Source: Escherichia coli | Lineage (GTDB): Bacteria; Pseudomonadota; Gammaproteobacteria; Enterobacterales; Enterobacteriaceae | Strand: one strand, 5' to 3' | DNA length: 64,000 nucleotides | NCBI RefSeq assembly: GCF_001677475.2 | Contig: NZ_CP015229.1 | Shown: in pieces, positions 4,379-57,680 of the stretch | Numbering within the stretch: position 1 is the first letter of the stretch | Layout: every line of letters begins with the position of its first letter | Notes under the pieces: model-generated | Told to the model about the DNA's origin: nothing | The model's database searches: none | Seen by the model: the letters and a program-made list of their open reading frames with translations, nothing else | Position numbers and translations under genes: made by a program

Positions 4379-5047
4379 TCAGTTGTGATGACGCACAGCG
4401 CGCAGAAACTCGTGGCGCGTATTCTGACTGGATTTGAACAATCCACCAAGAGAGGTCGTTGTCGTGGCACTGGTTGCATCGCGGATGCCGCGCGCTTTCA
4501 CGCAGTAATGCACCGCGTCGATAGAGACAGCCACGTTATTGGTGCCCAGCAGCGTTTGTAGCGCAATGAGAATTTGCTGGGTCAGACGTTCCTGTACCTG
4601 TGGGCGCTGGGCAAAGAACTGCACGATGCGGTTAATTTTTGACAGACCGATCACCGAATCTTTCGGGATATAAGCCACCGTCGCTTTGCCATCGATGGTA
4701 ACAAAATGGTGTTCACAGGTGCTGGTCAGGGTGATATCGCGCACGGTGACCATTTCATCGACCTTCATTTTGTTTTCAATGAGGGTGATTTTCGGGAAAT
4801 TGGCGTAATCCAGACCGGAGAAAATTTCATCGACATACATTTTAGCGATGCGATGCGGCGTTTCCATCAAACTGTCATCAGCCAGGTCGAGATTCAGCAG
4901 CTGCATGATTTCGGTCATATGACCAGCAATAAGGCTTTTGCGCGTTTCGTTATCCATTTCATGCACGGGCGGGCGCAGCGGTGTTTCCAGTCCTCGCGCA
5001 ACTAACGCTTCATGAACCAGGGCCGCTTCTTTACTGAGTGATGGCAT
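4379..5047 (-). CDS. folE: GTP cyclohydrolase I
   Basis: 222-aa [27 protein letters not shown]... containing the STCEHH motif. Confidence 0.95.
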
Positions 5048-5271
5048 TTATGATTTCTCCTGCAGGTGTGACGCCTCCGCCCTGCGTGGGGGCAAAGTTA
5101 TTAAGCTGATTTACAGCCTGATTATTGTGCGTGAGGCGGCGCACATAATCCAGTATTCACAGCGATAATTATTGTAATTGCCGCTGCCTTTCATCAGCAG
5201 ATGTTAAAACATCGTTATGCAAATACGGAAGTGAAAGTTACTCACAGCACATTGAATAAACGGTATGATGA

Positions 5272-20623: not shown

Positions 20624-21046
20624 AGCACGTCCTCTGGTAAAAAATTACCAACCCTGTCAATCCACAAGAATATAGATACTGCAAAGACGGTTTAAACATG
20701 TGTTCATATTTAAACATGTGCTCATAGTATGCATGTTTTACGTAAAGTAAATTACCGCCAGAGAGGCAAAATGGGCAGATTTGAGCAGGCTCACAAAATG
20801 CGATTAAATGCCTGAATTACAAAAGCGAGGAATTTGTGACGGGATGCACAGAACATGAACACTAAAAAAGGGCAGAAAATAATCTGCCCTTGAGGAAATA
20901 ACCTTAGTGTTTGATGAACGTTTCAGGTTTCTACTGAAAGATAAAACCATTTAAATTCATAAAATTACATTCACAAACCGGTCATTCTCTTTGCGCTCAT
21001 CCAATGATACAGGGCAGGAAATTTCTGCCCTGTAACACACCTTTTA

Positions 21047-26777: not shown

Positions 26778-27350
26778 ATGCCAAGAGCGAACGAAATTAA
26801 AAAAGGTATGGTACTGAATTACAACGGCAAACTGCTGCTGGTTAAGGATATTGATATTCAGTCGCCCACTGCCCGCGGTGCCGCTACGCTGTACAAAATG
26901 CGTTTTTCTGATGTCCGTACCGGGCTGAAAGTAGAAGAGCGTTTCAAAGGTGATGATATCGTTGACACCGTGACGCTGACCCGCCGTTACGTTGACTTCT
27001 CCTATGTCGATGGCAACGAATATGTCTTTATGGATAAAGAAGACTATACCCCGTATACCTTCACCAAAGATCAGATTGAAGAAGAGTTGCTGTTTATGCC
27101 AGAGGGCGGCATGCCGGACATGCAGGTGCTGACCTGGGACGGTCAACTGCTGGCGCTTGAGCTGCCGCAGACCGTTGATCTGGAAATCGTTGAAACCGCA
27201 CCAGGCATCAAAGGGGCATCTGCCAGCGCCCGTAACAAACCGGCGACATTGAGCACTGGTCTGGTGATTCAGGTACCAGAATACTTAAGCCCGGGCGAAA
27301 AAATTCGTATCCATATCGAAGAACGCCGTTATATGGGGCGTGCTGACTAA
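26778..27350 (+). CDS. yeiP: Elongation factor P-like protein
   Basis: 190-aa EF-P paralogue starting [22 protein letters not shown]; the ORF track's upstream extension was rejected. Confidence 0.9.
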
Positions 27351-27563
27351 CTTCAGCCGCATGCAGAAAAGGGATAGCTCAGGCTGTCCCTTTTTTAATT
27401 TATTATACCAATCTTCTATTTTGCGCTTCCTGAACACCTTACACCCGCAATTTTCACTCGTGGATTGATCGCCCTCACACTTCATCGCATTAACAATCCA
27501 GACCAATTTCAATTGCTGTCATATAACTTTACACTGTCATTGTTAATTAATCGTTACTAAGAC

Positions 27564-47539: not shown

Positions 47540-47616
47540 CGGCACGTAGCGCAGCCTGGTAGCGCACCGTCATGGGGTGTCGGGGGTCGGAGGTTCAAAT
47601 CCTCTCGTGCCGACCA
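47540..47616 (+). tRNA. proL: tRNA-Pro (anticodon GGG)
   Basis: CGGCACGTAGCGCAGCCTGGTAGCGCACCGTCATGGGGTGTCGGGGGTCGGAGGTTCAAATCCTCTCGTGCCGACCA; cloverleaf with GGG anticodon; encoded CCA absent. Confidence 0.9.
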
Positions 47617-47790: not shown

Positions 47791-47824
47791 AAAACCCTGT
47801 TTTTTCGTGTGGAATCATAGACAT

Positions 47825-49066
47825 ATGGCGAGAAAAACACCCCCATTAACCACAGTGCAGATCAAAGCAGCCAGACCAGCGCAAAAGGAGTACACCCTAC
47901 AGGACGGCGGTGGGCTTTTTCTCCTGGTAAAACCGTCCGGATCAAAACTCTGGCGATTTTCCTACTACCGACCATCGGACAAAAAAAGAATATTGCTGAG
48001 TTTTGGATCGCTTGAAGATGTTTCCCTGGCTGATGCCAGAAAACGCCGTAGCGAGTACAGGACGTTAATCAGTGCCGGAACTGACCCGCAGGACCATGAG
48101 AAGAAAAAACGAGAGGCAGAGGCCCGAAGACAAGGGAACACGTTCGAAAATGTGGCGGCGGCATGGTACCAGGTGAAAATCAGCCAGAATCTGGCCCCCA
48201 ACACGATTAAAGACATCTGGCGTTCGCTGGATAAATATGTATTCCCGTTCATCGGCAACACGCCAATAGATACCCTCACCGCTCGCCGCTTTGTTGAGAT
48301 ACTCACACCCATTAAAGCACGCGGCAACCTGGAAACTCTGAAACGCGTTTTACAACGCATCAATGAAGTGATGGATTTTGCTGCCAACAGTGGGCTGATT
48401 GACATCAACACCGCCGCGAACGTCCGCAAGGCATTCCCTTCCCCCACTAAAAAGCATATGCCAACCATCCGACCGGAACAGCTACCGCAGCTAATGCACG
48501 ATTTATCGGTCGCCAGCATAGAACGGCAAACCAGATTGCTAATCGAGTGGCAACTGCTGACCGTAGCACGCCCAGCCGAAGCAGCCGCCGCACGCTGGGA
48601 AGAAATAGATCTCGATGCCGAAACATGGACGATTCCAGCCGGACGCATGAAGATGCGCCGTGACCATGTGATCCCTCTTTGCGGTCAGGCGATAGCTGTA
48701 CTGGAAACAATGAAGCCAATCAGCGCACACAGGGAACATGTTTTTCCCAGCCTTAAAAATCCAATGCTGCCAATGAGCAGCCAGACCGCTAACGCTGCAT
48801 TGCGCCGGATGGGATACGCTGGTGTGCTGGTGTCTCACGGATTACGCGCCATATTCAGTACAGCAGCGAACGAGGAAGGATTCGAGCCGGACGTAATCGA
48901 GGCCGCACTCGCACACGTGGACACGAACGAGGTAAGGCGAGCATATAACCGAAGTAACTACCTGGAAAAGCGCGTGGTGCTTATGCGCTGGTGGGGGGAA
49001 TTTGTAGAGGCCGCAGCTACCGGAGTGACCATAGCCAGTGGTAAAAGGGGTATCCGTGCCGTGTAA
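47825..49066 (+). CDS. int: Tyrosine recombinase / integrase, P4-like (N-terminal DUF4102-type arm-binding domain)
   Basis: MARKTPPLTTVQIKAARPAQKEYTLQDGGGLFLLVKPSGSKLWRFSYY... with C-terminal catalytic region (HGLRA...RAYNRSNY); adjacent to tRNA. The GTG at 47807 is an alternative start. Confidence 0.85.
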   Translation: MARKTPPLTTVQIKAARPAQKEYTLQDGGGLFLLVKPSGSKLWRFSYYRPSDKKRILLSFGSLEDVSLADARKRRSEYRTLISAGTDPQDHEKKKREAEARRQGNTFENVAAAWYQVKISQNLAPNTIKDIWRSLDKYVFPFIGNTPIDTLTARRFVEILTPIKARGNLETLKRVLQRINEVMDFAANSGLIDINTAANVRKAFPSPTKKHMPTIRPEQLPQLMHDLSVASIERQTRLLIEWQLLTVARPAEAAAARWEEIDLDAETWTIPAGRMKMRRDHVIPLCGQAIAVLETMKPISAHREHVFPSLKNPMLPMSSQTANAALRRMGYAGVLVSHGLRAIFSTAANEEGFEPDVIEAALAHVDTNEVRRAYNRSNYLEKRVVLMRWWGEFVEAAATGVTIASGKRGIRAV

Positions 49067-49395: not shown

Positions 49396-49565
49396 TCACA
49401 ATAGCGGCCCTTTGCGGTCGCTATTTTTTTGCAGAAAGAAAAGCGTAATCAATGAGATAAAAAACAGTGGGTACCGTTTTAAAACGGTGGGTACTGTTTT
49501 TCCCGCCCTGCCCTGTTTTACCGTATTTATCACCGGAATACGCCGGATTAACGAGGTAAAACATA

Positions 49566-49772
49566 GTGGAAACAATCAGAAAAATACTTACCCGTCAGGA
49601 AGTAAAAAATATTCTGCGCATCAAGGCAGACAGTTCGCTACAGGACATGATCAACGCCGGAAAATTCCCGAAAGGCTTCAAAATCGGTCTGCGTCGTGTT
49701 GGCTGGTATGAAGATGAAGTGCTGGCCTGGCTGAAAGAGCGCGAGGAAGAAGCGCGCGGAACGGCTGCGTAA
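49566..49772 (+). CDS. alpA: AlpA-family (HTH_17) transcriptional regulator / excisionase-like protein
   Basis: GTG start with GAGG SD; 68 aa, LTRQEVKNILRIKADSSLQDMINAGKFPKGFKIGLRRVGWYEDEVLAWL matches the AlpA/prophage CP4-57 regulator pattern. Confidence 0.8.
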   Translation: METIRKILTRQEVKNILRIKADSSLQDMINAGKFPKGFKIGLRRVGWYEDEVLAWLKEREEEARGTAA

Positions 49773-50335: not shown

Positions 50336-50433
50336 TTGAGGTTATCAAGGTGCATAAATGCAAAGCCCCGCAAGTGTCGTTACCACTCGCAGGGCTTCTA
50401 ACCACCAACGATAGCAGAAGTATCGAGGTAGCT

Positions 50434-53502: not shown

Positions 53503-53748
53503 GTGACAACGAAGCACGCAAAAAAACCACAATCACACGCCCTTGATTTGACAGAACACTGGCTGAGGGTGGCGATAAAAATCATCGACCGCAACGCGGG
53601 AGAAGGATACGCGAAAGCGCATCCCGAACTGATAAGCGCATTCATGACCACGGCGGCGGCAAATTTTGCCACACTGACAGAACGGGAGATTGCCGAAGCG
53701 GAACAGGTGACAACCATCAACGTTAAAACCGGAGAGCAGACAGCATGA
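53503..53748 (+). CDS. Hypothetical protein (81 aa)
   Basis: GTG start with GAGGT SD; overlaps the start of the next ORF. Confidence 0.4.
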   Translation: MTTKHAKKPQSHALDLTEHWLRVAIKIIDRNAGEGYAKAHPELISAFMTTAAANFATLTEREIAEAEQVTTINVKTGEQTA

Positions 53749-54044
53749 CAGCACAGATAGCGGCTTGCGGGCGGCTGGTGGCTGACCCGCAGTTAAAGAC
53801 CACCAGCAAAGGGACACAAATGGCGATGGCGAGTATGGCGGTTCCCCTGCCGTGCAGCCAGGCAGATGACGGAACGGCGACGATGTGGTTATCTGTCCTG
53901 GCGTTTGGCAGACAGGCCGACGCACTGGCAAAACACCACAAAGGCGAACTCCTGAGCGTGGCGGGTAACATGCAGGTGAGCCAGTGGACAGGCCAGAACG
54001 GCGCGACCGGGCGGCAAAAAAGGTCAACAGGGCCAGGCCACTGA
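53745..54044 (+). CDS. SSB-like OB-fold single-stranded DNA-binding protein (short form)
   Basis: IAACGRLVADPQLKTT...WLSVLAFGRQADALAKHHKGELLSVAGNMQVSQWTGQNG follows the SSB OB-fold pattern (GxL..DPEL... W..V.xFG ... KG..V.V.G.L....W). Confidence 0.55.
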   Translation: MTAQIAACGRLVADPQLKTTSKGTQMAMASMAVPLPCSQADDGTATMWLSVLAFGRQADALAKHHKGELLSVAGNMQVSQWTGQNGATGRQKRSTGPGH

Positions 54045-54322
54045 CGCACTGAACAGGGCAAAACAACAGTCAGGGAATGATGAACCGTACGGCGATAATA
54101 TACCGTTTTAAATTCTGCAAACAAAAAGATGCCGGAAAAAAATAGATTTTCCGGCATGCTACATAAATCCCGACCAAAGGAAGTAAATACATTAACACGA
54201 ATTATCAGCACTGAAGTTGTCACGGCATATTTTATACAACATTGCACTTGGTTGCATGTATTCGCATAGCAGACATCGGTAATAGAATATATTCACAATT
54301 ATTTGTAATGAATGTAAAGAGG

Positions 54323-55369
54323 ATGAGTATGGTTGATTTATATTCGCCTACACAGCTTGTGCAGGTGGCTAATGCTGAAGATGTGCAAAAAAAATTAAAT
54401 GCGTTGTTTACCAGTTTGTTTTTCACTCGCTCGGTAATGTTTGAATCGAGAGACATTATTCTTGATACGATCGACGATCCAAATATCCCGATCGCGGCGT
54501 TTTGCTCTCCTATGGTGGGCAGTAAAGTTTCACGAGATGAGGGATACGAATCAAAAACAATTCGCCCTGGCTATATGAAACCGAAAAGCAGTATTGATCC
54601 AAATAAGTTAGCTGTGCGCCCTGCTGGTGTATCACCTGAGCAATACAATGCTTTTGGGGCGCGTAATATTAAAGTTAAACAGGCGATTGTAAATCAGGCT
54701 AAAGCTATTCGTGCACGTATTGAATGGCTTGCTGTTCAGGCAATCACAACGGGGAAAAATATCATTGAGGGCGATGGTATTGAACGTTATGAGCTGGACT
54801 GGAATATAAAACCACAAAATATCATCACTCAGTCTGGCGGTACTGAGTGGTCAGGTAAGGATAAAGAAACTTTTGATCCAAATGATGATATTGAGAGCTA
54901 CGCAGAATTTAGTGAGGGCGTCACTAATATCATCATTATGGGTGGTAATGTATGGAAGAAATACCGTTCATTCAGAGCGATAAAAGAGGCTTTGGATACC
55001 CGTCGTGGTTCTAATTCCGAACTGGAAACGGCCCTTAAAGACCTTGGTGATTCGGTGAGTTTTAAAGGGTATATGGGCGATGTTGCGATTGTTGTTTACA
55101 GCGGGCGTTATACCGACGAGGACGGAACAGAAAAACATTTCCTTGATCCTGATTTGATGGTGCTTGGCAATACGGCTCTTCAGGGGATTGTCGCCTATGG
55201 CGGTATTCAGGATCCGGAGCTAATCCGAATGGGGCTGACTAAAGCCGAACTTGCACCGAAAAACTATATTGTGCCTGGTGATCCGGCTATTGAATATGTG
55301 CAGACACATTCAGCACCACAGCCAATACCGGCCCGCATCAATCGTTTTGTTACCGTTCGCATTGGCTAA
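54323..55369 (+). CDS. Major capsid protein, lambda gpE family
   Basis: MSMVDLYSPTQL... with NITQSGGTEWSGKDKETFDPNDDIESYA, DTRRGSNSELETALKDLGDSVSFKG and GDVAIVVYSG, matching lambda E as recalled from memory (start may be the ATG at 54329). Confidence 0.8.
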   Translation: MSMVDLYSPTQLVQVANAEDVQKKLNALFTSLFFTRSVMFESRDIILDTIDDPNIPIAAFCSPMVGSKVSRDEGYESKTIRPGYMKPKSSIDPNKLAVRPAGVSPEQYNAFGARNIKVKQAIVNQAKAIRARIEWLAVQAITTGKNIIEGDGIERYELDWNIKPQNIITQSGGTEWSGKDKETFDPNDDIESYAEFSEGVTNIIIMGGNVWKKYRSFRAIKEALDTRRGSNSELETALKDLGDSVSFKGYMGDVAIVVYSGRYTDEDGTEKHFLDPDLMVLGNTALQGIVAYGGIQDPELIRMGLTKAELAPKNYIVPGDPAIEYVQTHSAPQPIPARINRFVTVRIG

Positions 55370-55378
55370 GGGGGAGCA

Positions 55379-55720
55379 ATGGCTACTCATTACACTGAAC
55401 TCATGTCTGGCACTGAAGCACTGGTTACTACGCTGGGGATATTTTCAGCCAATAAAGGGGTAATACCTGCGTTTACGCCACTGATGCAGGAAGATGCAAC
55501 TGGTGCGCTAGTGGTATGGGATGGAACGAGCGCAGGCAAAGCGGTTTATGTTTCCGCTGTACAAATCGACACAGCGAAAAAAACACAGGCACAGGTTTAT
55601 AAGACAGGTGTTTTAAATGTTGATGCTCTGAACTGGCCTGAGTCTGTAAAAGAACTGTCGGCAAAGGTTGCCGCGTTTGTTGGCTCAGGTATTTCTGTTC
55701 AGCCGCTGGCTCGTGTGTAA
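55379..55720 (+). CDS. Head decoration protein, lambda gpD family
   Basis: 113 aa; TPLMQEDATGALVVWDGTSAGKAV...YKTGVLNVDALNWPE...AAFVGSGISV parallels lambda D as recalled from memory. Confidence 0.75.
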   Translation: MATHYTELMSGTEALVTTLGIFSANKGVIPAFTPLMQEDATGALVVWDGTSAGKAVYVSAVQIDTAKKTQAQVYKTGVLNVDALNWPESVKELSAKVAAFVGSGISVQPLARV

Positions 55721-55731
55721 AGGGGGATACA

Positions 55732-56115
55732 ATGCAGAATCATTACAATGACCTTAAGCCAATTGCCGAAATGATGTATCCGGATCCAGCAGTAGAGGAA
55801 TTAAAGGCTATTGCTGACAAAATGCGTTTAAGTGAACGCCTTGTTGATATGAATCAGGTGATGGAACTTACTACCCTTAGCCGTCGCACATTGCTAAACC
55901 TTGAGGCTCGCGGAGAGTTCCCCGAACGCGTACAGGTTACGGAAGGGCGTAAGGCCTGGTATTTAAGTGAAGTGATCGACTGGATAAACAATATTCCTCG
56001 AGCTTCTGAATATTGCCGCGTACCTGTCCCAAAAAAGCCAGATGCGGCGCTATGCCTCAAGATTGAGCGTGTACGTCGCAATGCACGGGATGGTCGCTAT
56101 AAGTTGATTGGTTGA
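55732..56115 (+). CDS. AlpA/HTH_17-family DNA-binding protein with N-terminal extension
   Basis: LVDMNQVMELTTLSRRTLLNLEARGEFPERVQVTEGRKAWYLSEVIDWINN matches the AlpA-type HTH pattern; lies directly upstream of cos. Confidence 0.55.
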   Translation: MQNHYNDLKPIAEMMYPDPAVEELKAIADKMRLSERLVDMNQVMELTTLSRRTLLNLEARGEFPERVQVTEGRKAWYLSEVIDWINNIPRASEYCRVPVPKKPDAALCLKIERVRRNARDGRYKLIG

Positions 56116-56140: not shown

Positions 56141-56215
56141 CGGGTCCTTTCCGGCGATCCGGTAGGCTACGGGGCGGCGACCTTGCGGATTTTCGCTATT
56201 TATGAGCCTTTTCGG
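56141..56215 (+). other. Lambda-type cos site (cosQ-cosN plus conserved flank)
   Basis: CGGGTCCTTTCCGGCGATCCGGTAGGCTACG|GGGCGGCGACCT|TGCGGATTTTCGCTATTTATGA; the 12-nt GGGCGGCGACCT (56172-56183) equals the lambda cohesive end as recalled from memory. Confidence 0.75.
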
Positions 56216-56316
56216 GTTGGTGGTGGTGGTTTTGTTTTTCGCTCTATCTCTATGAATAAAAAGGGAAAGATAACACCAACACACCAACCTGAAACCTTAA
56301 CTAAGTGGGGATATTG

Positions 56317-56859
56317 ATGAAATCGCACCTGATGAACAAAAAAACTATGGCGCAAAGCTGCCGCGTAAGTGCGACAGCGTTCGACAAGTGGGGAGTAACT
56401 CCCGTTGAGCGTAAAGGCCGTGAGGCGTTTTATGATGTTGCCAGCGTGATAGACAATAGGGTTAACAATGCAATTAACCAGCTTACAAACGACAAAGGCG
56501 AGATTGATGATGATGAACTTTTACGCGTAAGAATCAGATTAATGACGGCCCAGGCGGAAGCGCAGGAACTTAAAAACGAGCGCGAACGCGGCGAGGTGAT
56601 TGATACAAAGTTTTGCATCTACGCGATTTCAAAACTGGCGAGTCAGATTTCATCAATCATGGACAGCCTCCCGCTCACAATGCAAAGGCGCTTTCCCGAT
56701 ATAAGGCCGTATATGCTGGATGAACTAAAAAGGGAAATAGCCAAAGCATGTAACGCATGTGCAAGACTTGACGAAAACCTGCCACAGATACTGGCTGATT
56801 ACCTGATGGAAACTACCGGAAGCGCGCCTGAGAAGTTGCTACAGAACAAAGGCGAGTAA
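56317..56859 (+). CDS. Terminase small subunit, lambda Nu1 family (no large subunit gene follows)
   Basis: RLMTAQAEAQELKNERERGEVIDTKFCIYAISKLASQISSIMDSLPLTMQRRFPD and C-terminal LKREIAKACNACARLDENLPQILADYL match lambda Nu1 as recalled from memory; gene sits about 135 bp downstream of cosN. Confidence 0.75.
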   Translation: MKSHLMNKKTMAQSCRVSATAFDKWGVTPVERKGREAFYDVASVIDNRVNNAINQLTNDKGEIDDDELLRVRIRLMTAQAEAQELKNERERGEVIDTKFCIYAISKLASQISSIMDSLPLTMQRRFPDIRPYMLDELKREIAKACNACARLDENLPQILADYLMETTGSAPEKLLQNKGE

Positions 56860-57214: not shown

Positions 57215-57235
57215 CTTGCTGAACTTAAAGCATAA

Positions 57236-57333
57236 TGGAAATTTGCACTCTGGCCTAACCCGTTAATATTTCAGCAAAGTGCAAATTTGCGTTCTGTAGC
57301 TGGTGGCTGGCAGAATGTAAATTTACATTCTGG
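57236..57333. repeat. Three related palindromic sites sharing an AAATTT core and ending in TTCTG or CTCTG
   Basis: GGAAATTTGCACTCTGG (57236), GTGCAAATTTGCGTTCTG (57279), CAGAATGTAAATTTACATTCTGG (57311; 20-bp perfect palindrome). Confidence 0.6.
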
Positions 57334-57337
57334 TGAT

Positions 57338-57637
57338 TTAATCATCTGATTTACCCAGCCCGTACCGGATTACCGTACAGTGAGCGCCATCGCTACCGAT
57401 ACGCACATCAAAGCGGGGTTCGCGCACTTTCACGCGGTACAGGATCCCATCATTTACCATAGCGTTTAACGTTCGTCGGGTTGCCTCTATGTGGTATCGC
57501 TGATATTCGGAACCATAGAGCAGCAATGTAACACCACGAACATCAAATGGTGGTTCTCCAGCCTCCACCCGCACCCAATCGCGATACTCAGGTTTGTAAA
57601 GTTCAAGAATCTGTTTTTTGTGCCTGGTCATTCTCAT
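57338..57637 (-). CDS. Hypothetical protein (99 aa), reverse-oriented accessory gene
   Basis: ATG preceded by AGGA SD 7 nt upstream; MRMTRHKKQILELYKPEYRDWVRVEAG...; no recognisable family. Confidence 0.5.
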   Translation of the reverse strand: MRMTRHKKQILELYKPEYRDWVRVEAGEPPFDVRGVTLLLYGSEYQRYHIEATRRTLNAMVNDGILYRVKVREPRFDVRIGSDGAHCTVIRYGLGKSDD

Positions 57638-57680
57638 GTGTGATTCCTTATTGTGGGACAGTACTGTCATACAATAAGCT

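Follow-up and report, generated by a model that had tools for sequence, protein, structure and literature searches.

Gram-negative phage-inducible chromosomal islands (PICIs) have been described with a single AlpA master regulator, and with capsid and decoration genes that have no known role or regulation. What, then, would a second AlpA-type gene do in such an island, placed between the capsid genes and the packaging site cos? The question is raised by a stretch of 64,000 nucleotides (nt) from contig NZ_CP015229.1 of Escherichia coli (RefSeq assembly GCF_001677475.2), the whole of which we refer to as the window. It holds an 11-kb phage satellite, a PICI resembling EcCICFT073 that is integrated at tRNA-Pro. 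The last gene ahead of the satellite's cos (55732..56115, + strand, an open reading frame (ORF) with an ATG start) encodes an AlpA-family winged-helix protein of 127 amino acids (aa). Judged by its sequence, the protein is a distinct, extended AlpA/excisionase-type DNA-binding subfamily, tied to one type of satellite head cassette. What it does for that cassette we suggest more tentatively, at slightly less than even confidence: it may be a regulator, specific to the cassette, that activates or autoregulates the capsid operon.

The 127-aa protein and its head cassette

An earlier note on the window had placed this ORF exactly where we find it and had called its product a second AlpA-type protein, beyond the alpA near the integrase gene. 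Both statements hold, as Phage_AlpA (PF05930) is detected in the 127-aa protein (E 1.4e-8; 34.9 bits against a cutoff of 21; residues 36-85, profile positions 2-51 of 51) and in the product of the canonical alpA (E 4.5e-8). The core had been described as AlpA/HTH_17-like, of which only the first half survives a profile search: HTH_17 (PF12728), a sister family of Phage_AlpA in the same MerR-like clan, scored below its gathering threshold (14.4 bits against 27, E 0.048), and therefore the AlpA assignment alone stands. The N-terminal extension, given as 40 residues, is real but shorter; it measures about 35 residues in the window protein, varies between 20 and 35 in the family, and lacks the first 13 residues in the commonest E. 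coli allele. Missed altogether was that about 40 residues are also added at the C-terminus; this extension is conserved and is predicted to form a helix at 105-120.

The family to which the protein belongs is one of excisionases and regulators. PHROG 2790, annotated 'excisionase and transcriptional regulator', matches residues 11-109 (E 1.8e-48), and the sole solved relative found by sequence search is an AlpA-family excisionase, PDB 8c3t (E 1.6e-10), for which a literature search found no citing publication; an NCBIfam search returned zero matches. The winged helix-turn-helix (HTH) core, residues 36-85, is encoded at 55837..55986 (+ strand), between the variable residues 1-35 and a linker and basic helix in residues 86-127. 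An AlphaFold2 model, built on a 35-sequence alignment and with a mean predicted local distance difference test score of 72.8, places two low-confidence N-terminal helices before a confident winged helix at 40-86, which is followed by a proline-rich linker and a basic helix at 105-120. The protein thus has the two helices, beta-hairpin wing and third helix of the winged HTH fold, and its best-conserved segment is this canonical DNA-binding unit.

The protein has homologues of equal length, 50-75% identical to it, in 11 or more Enterobacteriaceae genera. They form 99 clusters, mostly of 127 aa, and PF05930 is present in 90 of the 90 that are full length. About 7% of complete E. coli genomes carry the gene (about 391-394 of 5426): promoter, capsid, decoration and HTH genes were found together in 394, and the HTH gene with cos in 391. 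A strict peptide-pattern scan of genome contigs gave only 3 loci. No phage homologue was detected by tblastn against 50,697 phage records, and a literature search found no published description of this AlpA subfamily or of the promoter array considered below.

Gene order around these homologues is uniform: approximately 34 distinct relatives, drawn from at least 11 genera, all have the same cassette of promoter, capsid, decoration and 127-aa gene, with the last always its third gene. In the window the cassette begins with an E-like major capsid gene (346 aa, 54329..55369, + strand; PF03864, E 3.8e-41; start as in RefSeq for a relative) and continues with a gpD-like head-decoration gene (113 aa, 55379..55720, + strand; PF02924, E 2.3e-15), and the ribosome-binding site of the 127-aa gene is GGGGGA, 11 nt past the stop of this preceding gene. 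The same three lengths with the same spacing recur in E. coli, Salmonella, Enterobacter, Pluralibacter, Buttiauxella, Scandinavium, Kosakonia, Kluyvera and Superficieibacter, in metagenomic contigs and in the satellite 11capE of strain NRG857c. We refer to this arrangement as type B. The type A cassette of CFT073 and O157:H7 SS17 has a capsid protein of 351 aa, a decoration protein of 111 aa and c1501 as its third gene. Capsid and decoration proteins of the two types are only about 55% identical (in the window, 55% to c1499 and 54% to c1500 of EcCICFT073).

Although c1501 occupies the same slot, it is not a homologue of the 127-aa protein, as neither BLASTP nor hhalign detects any similarity. 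Separately, c1501 (27083-27496 of locus L003) gave a match to the head-protease/scaffold family, in its C-terminal part (PHROG 53 positions 495-567, E 1e-8). On this evidence c1501 would be a scaffold of the lambda Nu3 kind, which would give type-A satellites a scaffold protein beside their capsid and decoration proteins.

Everything outside the cassette varies. Type-B cassettes precede at least four packaging arrangements: a Nu1-like small terminase (TerS) with its cosB; an Rpp-like gene that separates the 127-aa gene from cos in Pluralibacter (35% identical to RppA, with an RppC match at E 1e-3); a lambda-like cosB without terminase in Kluyvera; and zero packaging genes, as in 11capE, whose copy of the 127-aa protein is 96% identical. 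The latter is a published helper-embedded satellite, and its paper does not discuss the 127-aa gene (PMC10111431). Terminase is present in about half of the 34 distinct downstream contexts. Integrases of type-B loci are 22-39% identical to that of the window or undetectable, and the sites of integration include tRNA-Pro, a prophage capsid gene, fis and a site linked to rpoD-dnaG. Replication genes and primase types also differ. Across islands with such unrelated or divergent integrases the 127-aa protein is 69-74% conserved, and among loci whose canonical AlpA alleles share 12-48% identity it is 69-86% identical. Conversely, in an O157 satellite a type-A cassette occurs together with the window's cosB and with a Nu1-like TerS 85% identical to that of the window, and therefore this TerS and cosB do not need the 127-aa protein. 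The free variation of integrases, AlpA and packaging modules speaks against the protein being the island's excisionase or a determinant of cosB specificity.

The capsid-operon promoter and its hexamer array

We aligned the non-coding DNA 5' of the type-B capsid gene from 11 loci in different genera. One conserved block stands out amid diverged flanks, and consists of a hairpin or terminator that ends the replication module, an array of direct hexamers and then GTGnTAGCATTAT. The array follows the consensus TTTATAC-N4-TTGCAC-N4-TTGCAY(-N4-TTGCAY), that is, three to four direct TTRYAC/TTGCAY hexamers. Its first two units (TTATAC-N4-TTRYAC) are kept in all 11 loci and the full array of three to four in 9 of them. 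In the window the hexamers lie at 54232..54267 (+ strand) with exact 10-bp spacing (TTATAC at 54232, TTGCAC at 54242, TTGCAT at 54252 and TCGCAT at 54262), and are a candidate binding site of the 127-aa protein. Upstream, between the replication module and the promoter, is a GC-rich hairpin (54129..54157) that a terminator scan scored on the - strand; in relatives, a hairpin with a T-run on the + strand occupies the matching position.

A promoter scan put a putative -10 hexamer, TAGAAT, at 54283..54288 (+ strand). In relatives the -10 is of the extended form, TGnTAGCAT, within the conserved block GTGnTAGCATTAT. The proximal conserved hexamer ends 24-25 nt upstream of the -10 in every locus, so that it spans about -43 to -38 (centre near -40), and a -35 consensus is missing. 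Such a geometry is that of a class II activator-dependent promoter.

The array is also specific to these loci. The three-hexamer pattern is unique in the 64-kb window (two overlapping matches, with 0.07 expected) and occurs once per clade-1 type-B locus. Neither type-A satellites nor 50 kb of a CFT073 lambdoid prophage contain it, and the helper DNA that flanks embedded satellites is also without it. Among the first 120 matches listed from a viral-contig collection, about 48 immediately precede a type-B capsid gene. In loci L011 and L008 canonical AlpA is near-identical (84%), yet array and 127-aa clade both differ.

What we observe directly is membership of the AlpA family, the fold, the order of the genes, their pattern of linkage, and the conservation and uniqueness of the array. 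From the last two, together with the linkage to type B and the promoter geometry, we infer that the 127-aa protein, the only DNA-binding protein encoded in the cassette, binds the array and most likely activates from it; the direction of regulation, like the binding, is deduced. The type-B cassette would then be a self-contained unit of hairpin or terminator, promoter with array, E-like gene, D-like gene and 127-aa gene, followed by cos. Several copies of the protein would bind head-to-tail on the three to four helically phased TTRYAC/TTGCAY hexamers, occupying about -43 to -73 of a promoter with an extended -10 and no -35. From there they would activate, or at least autoregulate, transcription of the capsid operon, and satellites could thereby exchange the cassette as a module under its own control. 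Within the family, AlpA of EcCICFT073 offers a precedent for activation, being a helper-induced positive autoregulator (PMC6092414).

Several points weigh against this proposal. Because the array, the capsid genes and the 127-aa gene are physically linked, their co-occurrence could reflect linkage alone, and the reader of the array could be a response regulator of the host or a factor from the helper. After its second unit the array degenerates in Buttiauxella and Scandinavium, the two most divergent loci. No clean covariation of protein and DNA emerged: there are suggestive substitutions in the recognition helix and wing, in two clades only. The spacing TTGC-N6-TTGC is also the lambda CII consensus, and CII was considered as the reader of the array. 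The motif fits, but the repeats are at -43/-53 rather than -38/-28, half a turn off CII geometry, and we retain CII solely as a reservation. Type-A cassettes work without such a protein, and the closest solved relative is an excisionase rather than a transcription factor. Finally, the capsid and decoration genes of EcCICFT073 have no known phenotype (PMC6092414), so the benefit of regulating those genes is not evident.

Other roles for the gene

Alongside late-gene control, the earlier note had proposed packaging-site recognition, on the grounds of position. A packaging accessory factor would bind at or near cosQ, cosN or cosB and help terminase to recognise satellite DNA or finish cutting it. 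The gene is indeed the last before cos: cosQ (GGGTCCT) starts 26 nt past its stop in the window, where the note gave 25 bp, and 26-53 nt past it in 31 of the 34 distinct downstream contexts. Moreover, Rpp shows that satellites evolve winged-helix proteins that redirect cos recognition (PMC6739421). Nevertheless, the gene co-segregates with capsid and decoration genes and not with cosB or TerS, both of which the O157 satellite has without it. Its downstream partners range from Nu1-like TerS or an Rpp-like gene, which in Pluralibacter separates it from cos, to a lambda-like cosB without TerS or none at all. Between its stop and cosQ the relatives have variable hairpins and no conserved sequence; cosQ and cosN are common to phages in which tblastn found no homologue; and an inverted repeat, I17, the candidate TerS site, already accounts for cosB. 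The gene lies beside cos because the cassette abuts cos, and this is not evidence for a cos-recognition role, which we consider unlikely. Of the note's interpretation, packaging-site recognition is thus unsupported, while late-gene control fits the conserved direct-repeat array in the promoter of the gene's own operon. A role other than island excision also fits: a protein 69-74% conserved despite divergent integrases and four integration sites is unlikely to be the island's excisionase.

That last observation bears on a wider proposal, in which the protein is a recombination directionality factor, either for the island or, like EcCIMP1 alpA_1, as a stand-in acting on a helper or neighbouring prophage. 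The annotation of PHROG 2790 favours it, as does the precedent of a second PICI AlpA that acts on helper excision (PMC11773190). The gene, however, lies far from int in a late operon, a canonical alpA is present next to int, and its 0 detectable homologues in the phage records set it apart from alpA_1, which resembles a helper Xis. Directionality factors normally co-evolve with their integrase, and no coupling to integrase or attachment (att) site is seen here; we give this proposal little credence. Similarly doubtful is a factor aimed at the helper, binding its DNA (for example late or lysogeny promoters) or one of its proteins to the satellite's benefit. Many carriers do sit inside helper prophages, the N- and C-terminal extensions could be protein-interaction surfaces, and factors of this sort are common in this part of satellites (PMC6092414, PMC6739421). 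Against it, the sole conserved candidate site lies in the satellite, with none in the 50-kb CFT073 prophage or the helper flanks, and only rppA gave interference in EcCICFT073 (PMC6739421), though that island is without this gene. Strict linkage to one capsid and decoration type could instead mean that the protein serves capsid assembly or bridges DNA to the capsid, replacing the Nu3-scaffold-like c1501 (PHROG 53, E 1e-8) whose slot it fills, or acting like lambda gpFI, which is of similar size and comes after the capsid gene in lambdoid phages. As a gpFI-like, satellite-specific packaging chaperone, it would hold the DNA end with its winged helix and contact the E-like and D-like proteins with its C-terminal helix, steering complexes of terminase and satellite DNA to procapsids that contain satellite subunits. 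This would explain inheritance with the capsid and decoration type, the FI-like place after the head genes and the position abutting cos. We find the chaperone highly improbable, and the assembly or scaffold-replacement role just as remote: neither BLASTP nor profile comparison relates the protein to c1501, no match to Packaging_FI or any scaffold family was found, and the part conserved best is a canonical DNA-binding winged helix.

The island and its place among known systems

We mapped cos by alignment to the lambda ends (NC_001416) and to cos1 of EcCICFT073. A lambda-type cosQ, cosN and conserved flank, kept in relatives, occupy 56142..56207 (+ strand). The heptamer GGGTCCT at 56142-56148, counterpart of lambda 48473-48479, is taken to be cosQ. 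It is followed at 56172-56183 by a 12-nt cohesive end, GGGCGGCGACCT, identical to that of lambda. Similarity to lambda runs up to TATTTATGA (56207) and is then lost, and we therefore place the start of cosB there. Lambdoid prophages share this cos core, with matches in 4674 of the 5426 complete E. coli genomes. The island-specific cosB (56208..56304, + strand) comprises a GGTGGTGGTGG block and the inverted repeat I17 (56210-56222 / 56282-56294). It is conserved in every TerS-carrying relative, including the O157 satellite without the HTH gene, and is unlike those of lambda and EcCICFT073. The Nu1-like TerS that follows (56317..56859, + strand; 180 aa by the RefSeq start; PF07471, E 9.3e-24; PHROG 57, E 6e-53) is 37% identical to lambda Nu1 (E 2e-35).

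Satellite Nu1-like terminases lack about 17-19 residues matching lambda Nu1 ~48-66, and their DNA-binding domain is also divergent; most of the listed Rpp-escape mutations (Y50, A55, E65, D68-R70) fall in that region of Nu1 (PMC6739421). The cohesive end differs by genus (for example GGGCGGCAGCGT in Salmonella and GGGATGTATACC in Buttiauxella; cos regions of loci L005, L006, L008 and L012), despite which cosQ and the right half, CGCTATTTAYGA, are constant; genus-specific ends presumably track local helper phages. In E. coli IGC_RcoliRes_1.1, a complete lambdoid prophage has only the last ~170 nt of the HTH gene (5010-5179 of locus L015; 89% identical; a pseudogene by annotation), immediately ahead of the prophage's cos. 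There the sequence towards cosQ is satellite-like and the cosB phage-type, and the remnant is a footprint of satellite-phage recombination at cos.

The island is bounded on the left by tRNA-Pro(ggg) (47540-47616) and on the right by a 17-bp att repeat of the tRNA 3' end (58597-58613). Between them lie the integrase gene (int, 47807-49066), alpA, a leftward YlcI-like gene, Icd-like and small ORFs, DUF4222, a D5-type primase, ssb, the gpE-like capsid and gpD-like decoration genes, the 127-aa gene, cos, the Nu1-like TerS and a 93-aa gene (PHROG 1561). Taken from genes alone, these are the hallmarks of a Gram-negative PICI: co-oriented int, alpA and pri/rep, a size of about 10-15 kb, an att site, a cos/terS module, and no tail or lysis genes. 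The island is colinear with EcCICFT073, which we located in CFT073, and which is a Gram-negative PICI with this organisation (PMC6092414). There the order is capsid c1499, decoration c1500, the 137-aa c1501, cos1, RppA (144 aa, c1503) and the same 93-aa gene.

The canonical alpA (68 aa, 49566-49772, + strand) starts 500 bp downstream of int. Its product aligns with the 127-aa protein over just 25 residues by BLASTP, at 36%, and is 22% identical to it in a multiple alignment. Just upstream are two direct repeats of GTGGGTACYGTTTT, 20 bp apart (49467 and 49487, within 49467-49500), a candidate site of AlpA autoregulation that is unlike the capsid-promoter array. Upstream of the YlcI-like gene is TTGCGGGGCTTTGC, a lambda CII-type TTGC-N6-TTGC motif (50347-50360, - strand), and an identical TTGCGGGGCTTTGC precedes the YlcI-like gene of EcCICFT073 (L003, ~20765-20778). 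The ssb gene (53745-54110) is probably a pseudogene, because, compared with its closest relative (APEC17, 140 aa), it lacks 56 bp, and the resulting frameshift reduces the ORF to 99 aa.

Past the 93-aa gene are an inverted repeat (57231-57252 / 57275-57296, 82% complementary) that contains AAATTTGCAC and a perfect 22-bp palindrome (57311-57332). The right end of the island (region 57338-61304) holds a PerC-family regulator gene (57681-58052), inside the att repeat at 58597, and a 4-residue repeat read on both strands (~58133-58241). We had considered PerC, found in type-A satellites, and the 127-aa protein as alternative regulators, and dropped the idea, as the PerC gene is also inside this island. 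Directly outside is an AIDA/pertactin-type autotransporter gene (58713-61304, - strand). Elsewhere, relatives embedded in prophage capsid genes carry differing candidate defence genes in variable slots (HEPN with DUF262, Abi_C and putAbiC; L141 18536-20252, L142 7779-8540 and L008 1432-2154).

A second, extended AlpA-type protein that is locked to capsid and decoration genes and a promoter array offers a testable handle on expression of the satellite 'late' module. Two head-cassette types and several packaging modules (TerS, Rpp, helper-type cos) that recombine freely at cos give a sharper modular picture of these elements. This modularity bears on forecasts of helper range and on the design of PICI-based delivery vehicles.

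Among known DNA-binding proteins, P2 Cox, 186 Apl and lambda Xis work at att sites and at the switch between lysis and lysogeny, whereas the candidate array here is at a capsid-operon promoter, with a geometry that suggests activation. The GIsul2 excisionase (PDB 8c3t), RdfS, TorI and P4 Vis differ in that the 127-aa gene is unlinked to integrase or att and is roughly twice as long. Antitermination by Pseudomonas aeruginosa AlpA was rejected as a model. That protein is a Q-like antiterminator of eight helices, with residues to at least 142, an N-terminal ring in the RNA exit channel and a C-terminal HTH (PMC9371919), and the 127-aa protein, of a different fold, does not belong with it. Nor is the latter an Rpp. 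It has no sequence match to RppA or RppC (a phmmer search against RppC was null at E<=10) and no sequence similarity to the Rpp/Nu1 DNA-binding domain, and the likeness in fold is generic. Rpp sets cosB specificity by pairing with helper TerS (PMC6739421), whereas the 127-aa gene is independent of cosB and TerS type and co-occurs with TerS, an Rpp-like gene or a lambda-type cosB.

Closer parallels come from PICIs themselves. Typical E. coli PICIs encode one AlpA only, and EcCIMP1 has a second AlpA-family gene, alpA_1, at the end opposite int, which is dispensable for the EcCIMP1 core cycle (PMC11773190). However, alpA_1 is on the opposite strand, resembles a helper Xis (TorI-like) and can substitute for the helper excisionase (PMC11773190); the 127-aa gene is co-oriented, inside the capsid operon and without a phage homologue. 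The AlpA of EcCICFT073 (PF05930), which switches on satellite genes (PMC6092414), shares with the 127-aa protein its Pfam family, winged-helix fold and kind of satellite. The position of the 127-aa gene is not that of the PICI master regulator, as it is 6.7 kb from int and a canonical alpA is in the usual place. Compared with PICI AlpA proteins of 62-68 aa, the protein has 127 aa and both extensions. Its gene is in the late capsid operon beside cos, conserved independently of the AlpA allele, and its candidate site is three to four copies of TTGCAY, where the repeats upstream of alpA are different.

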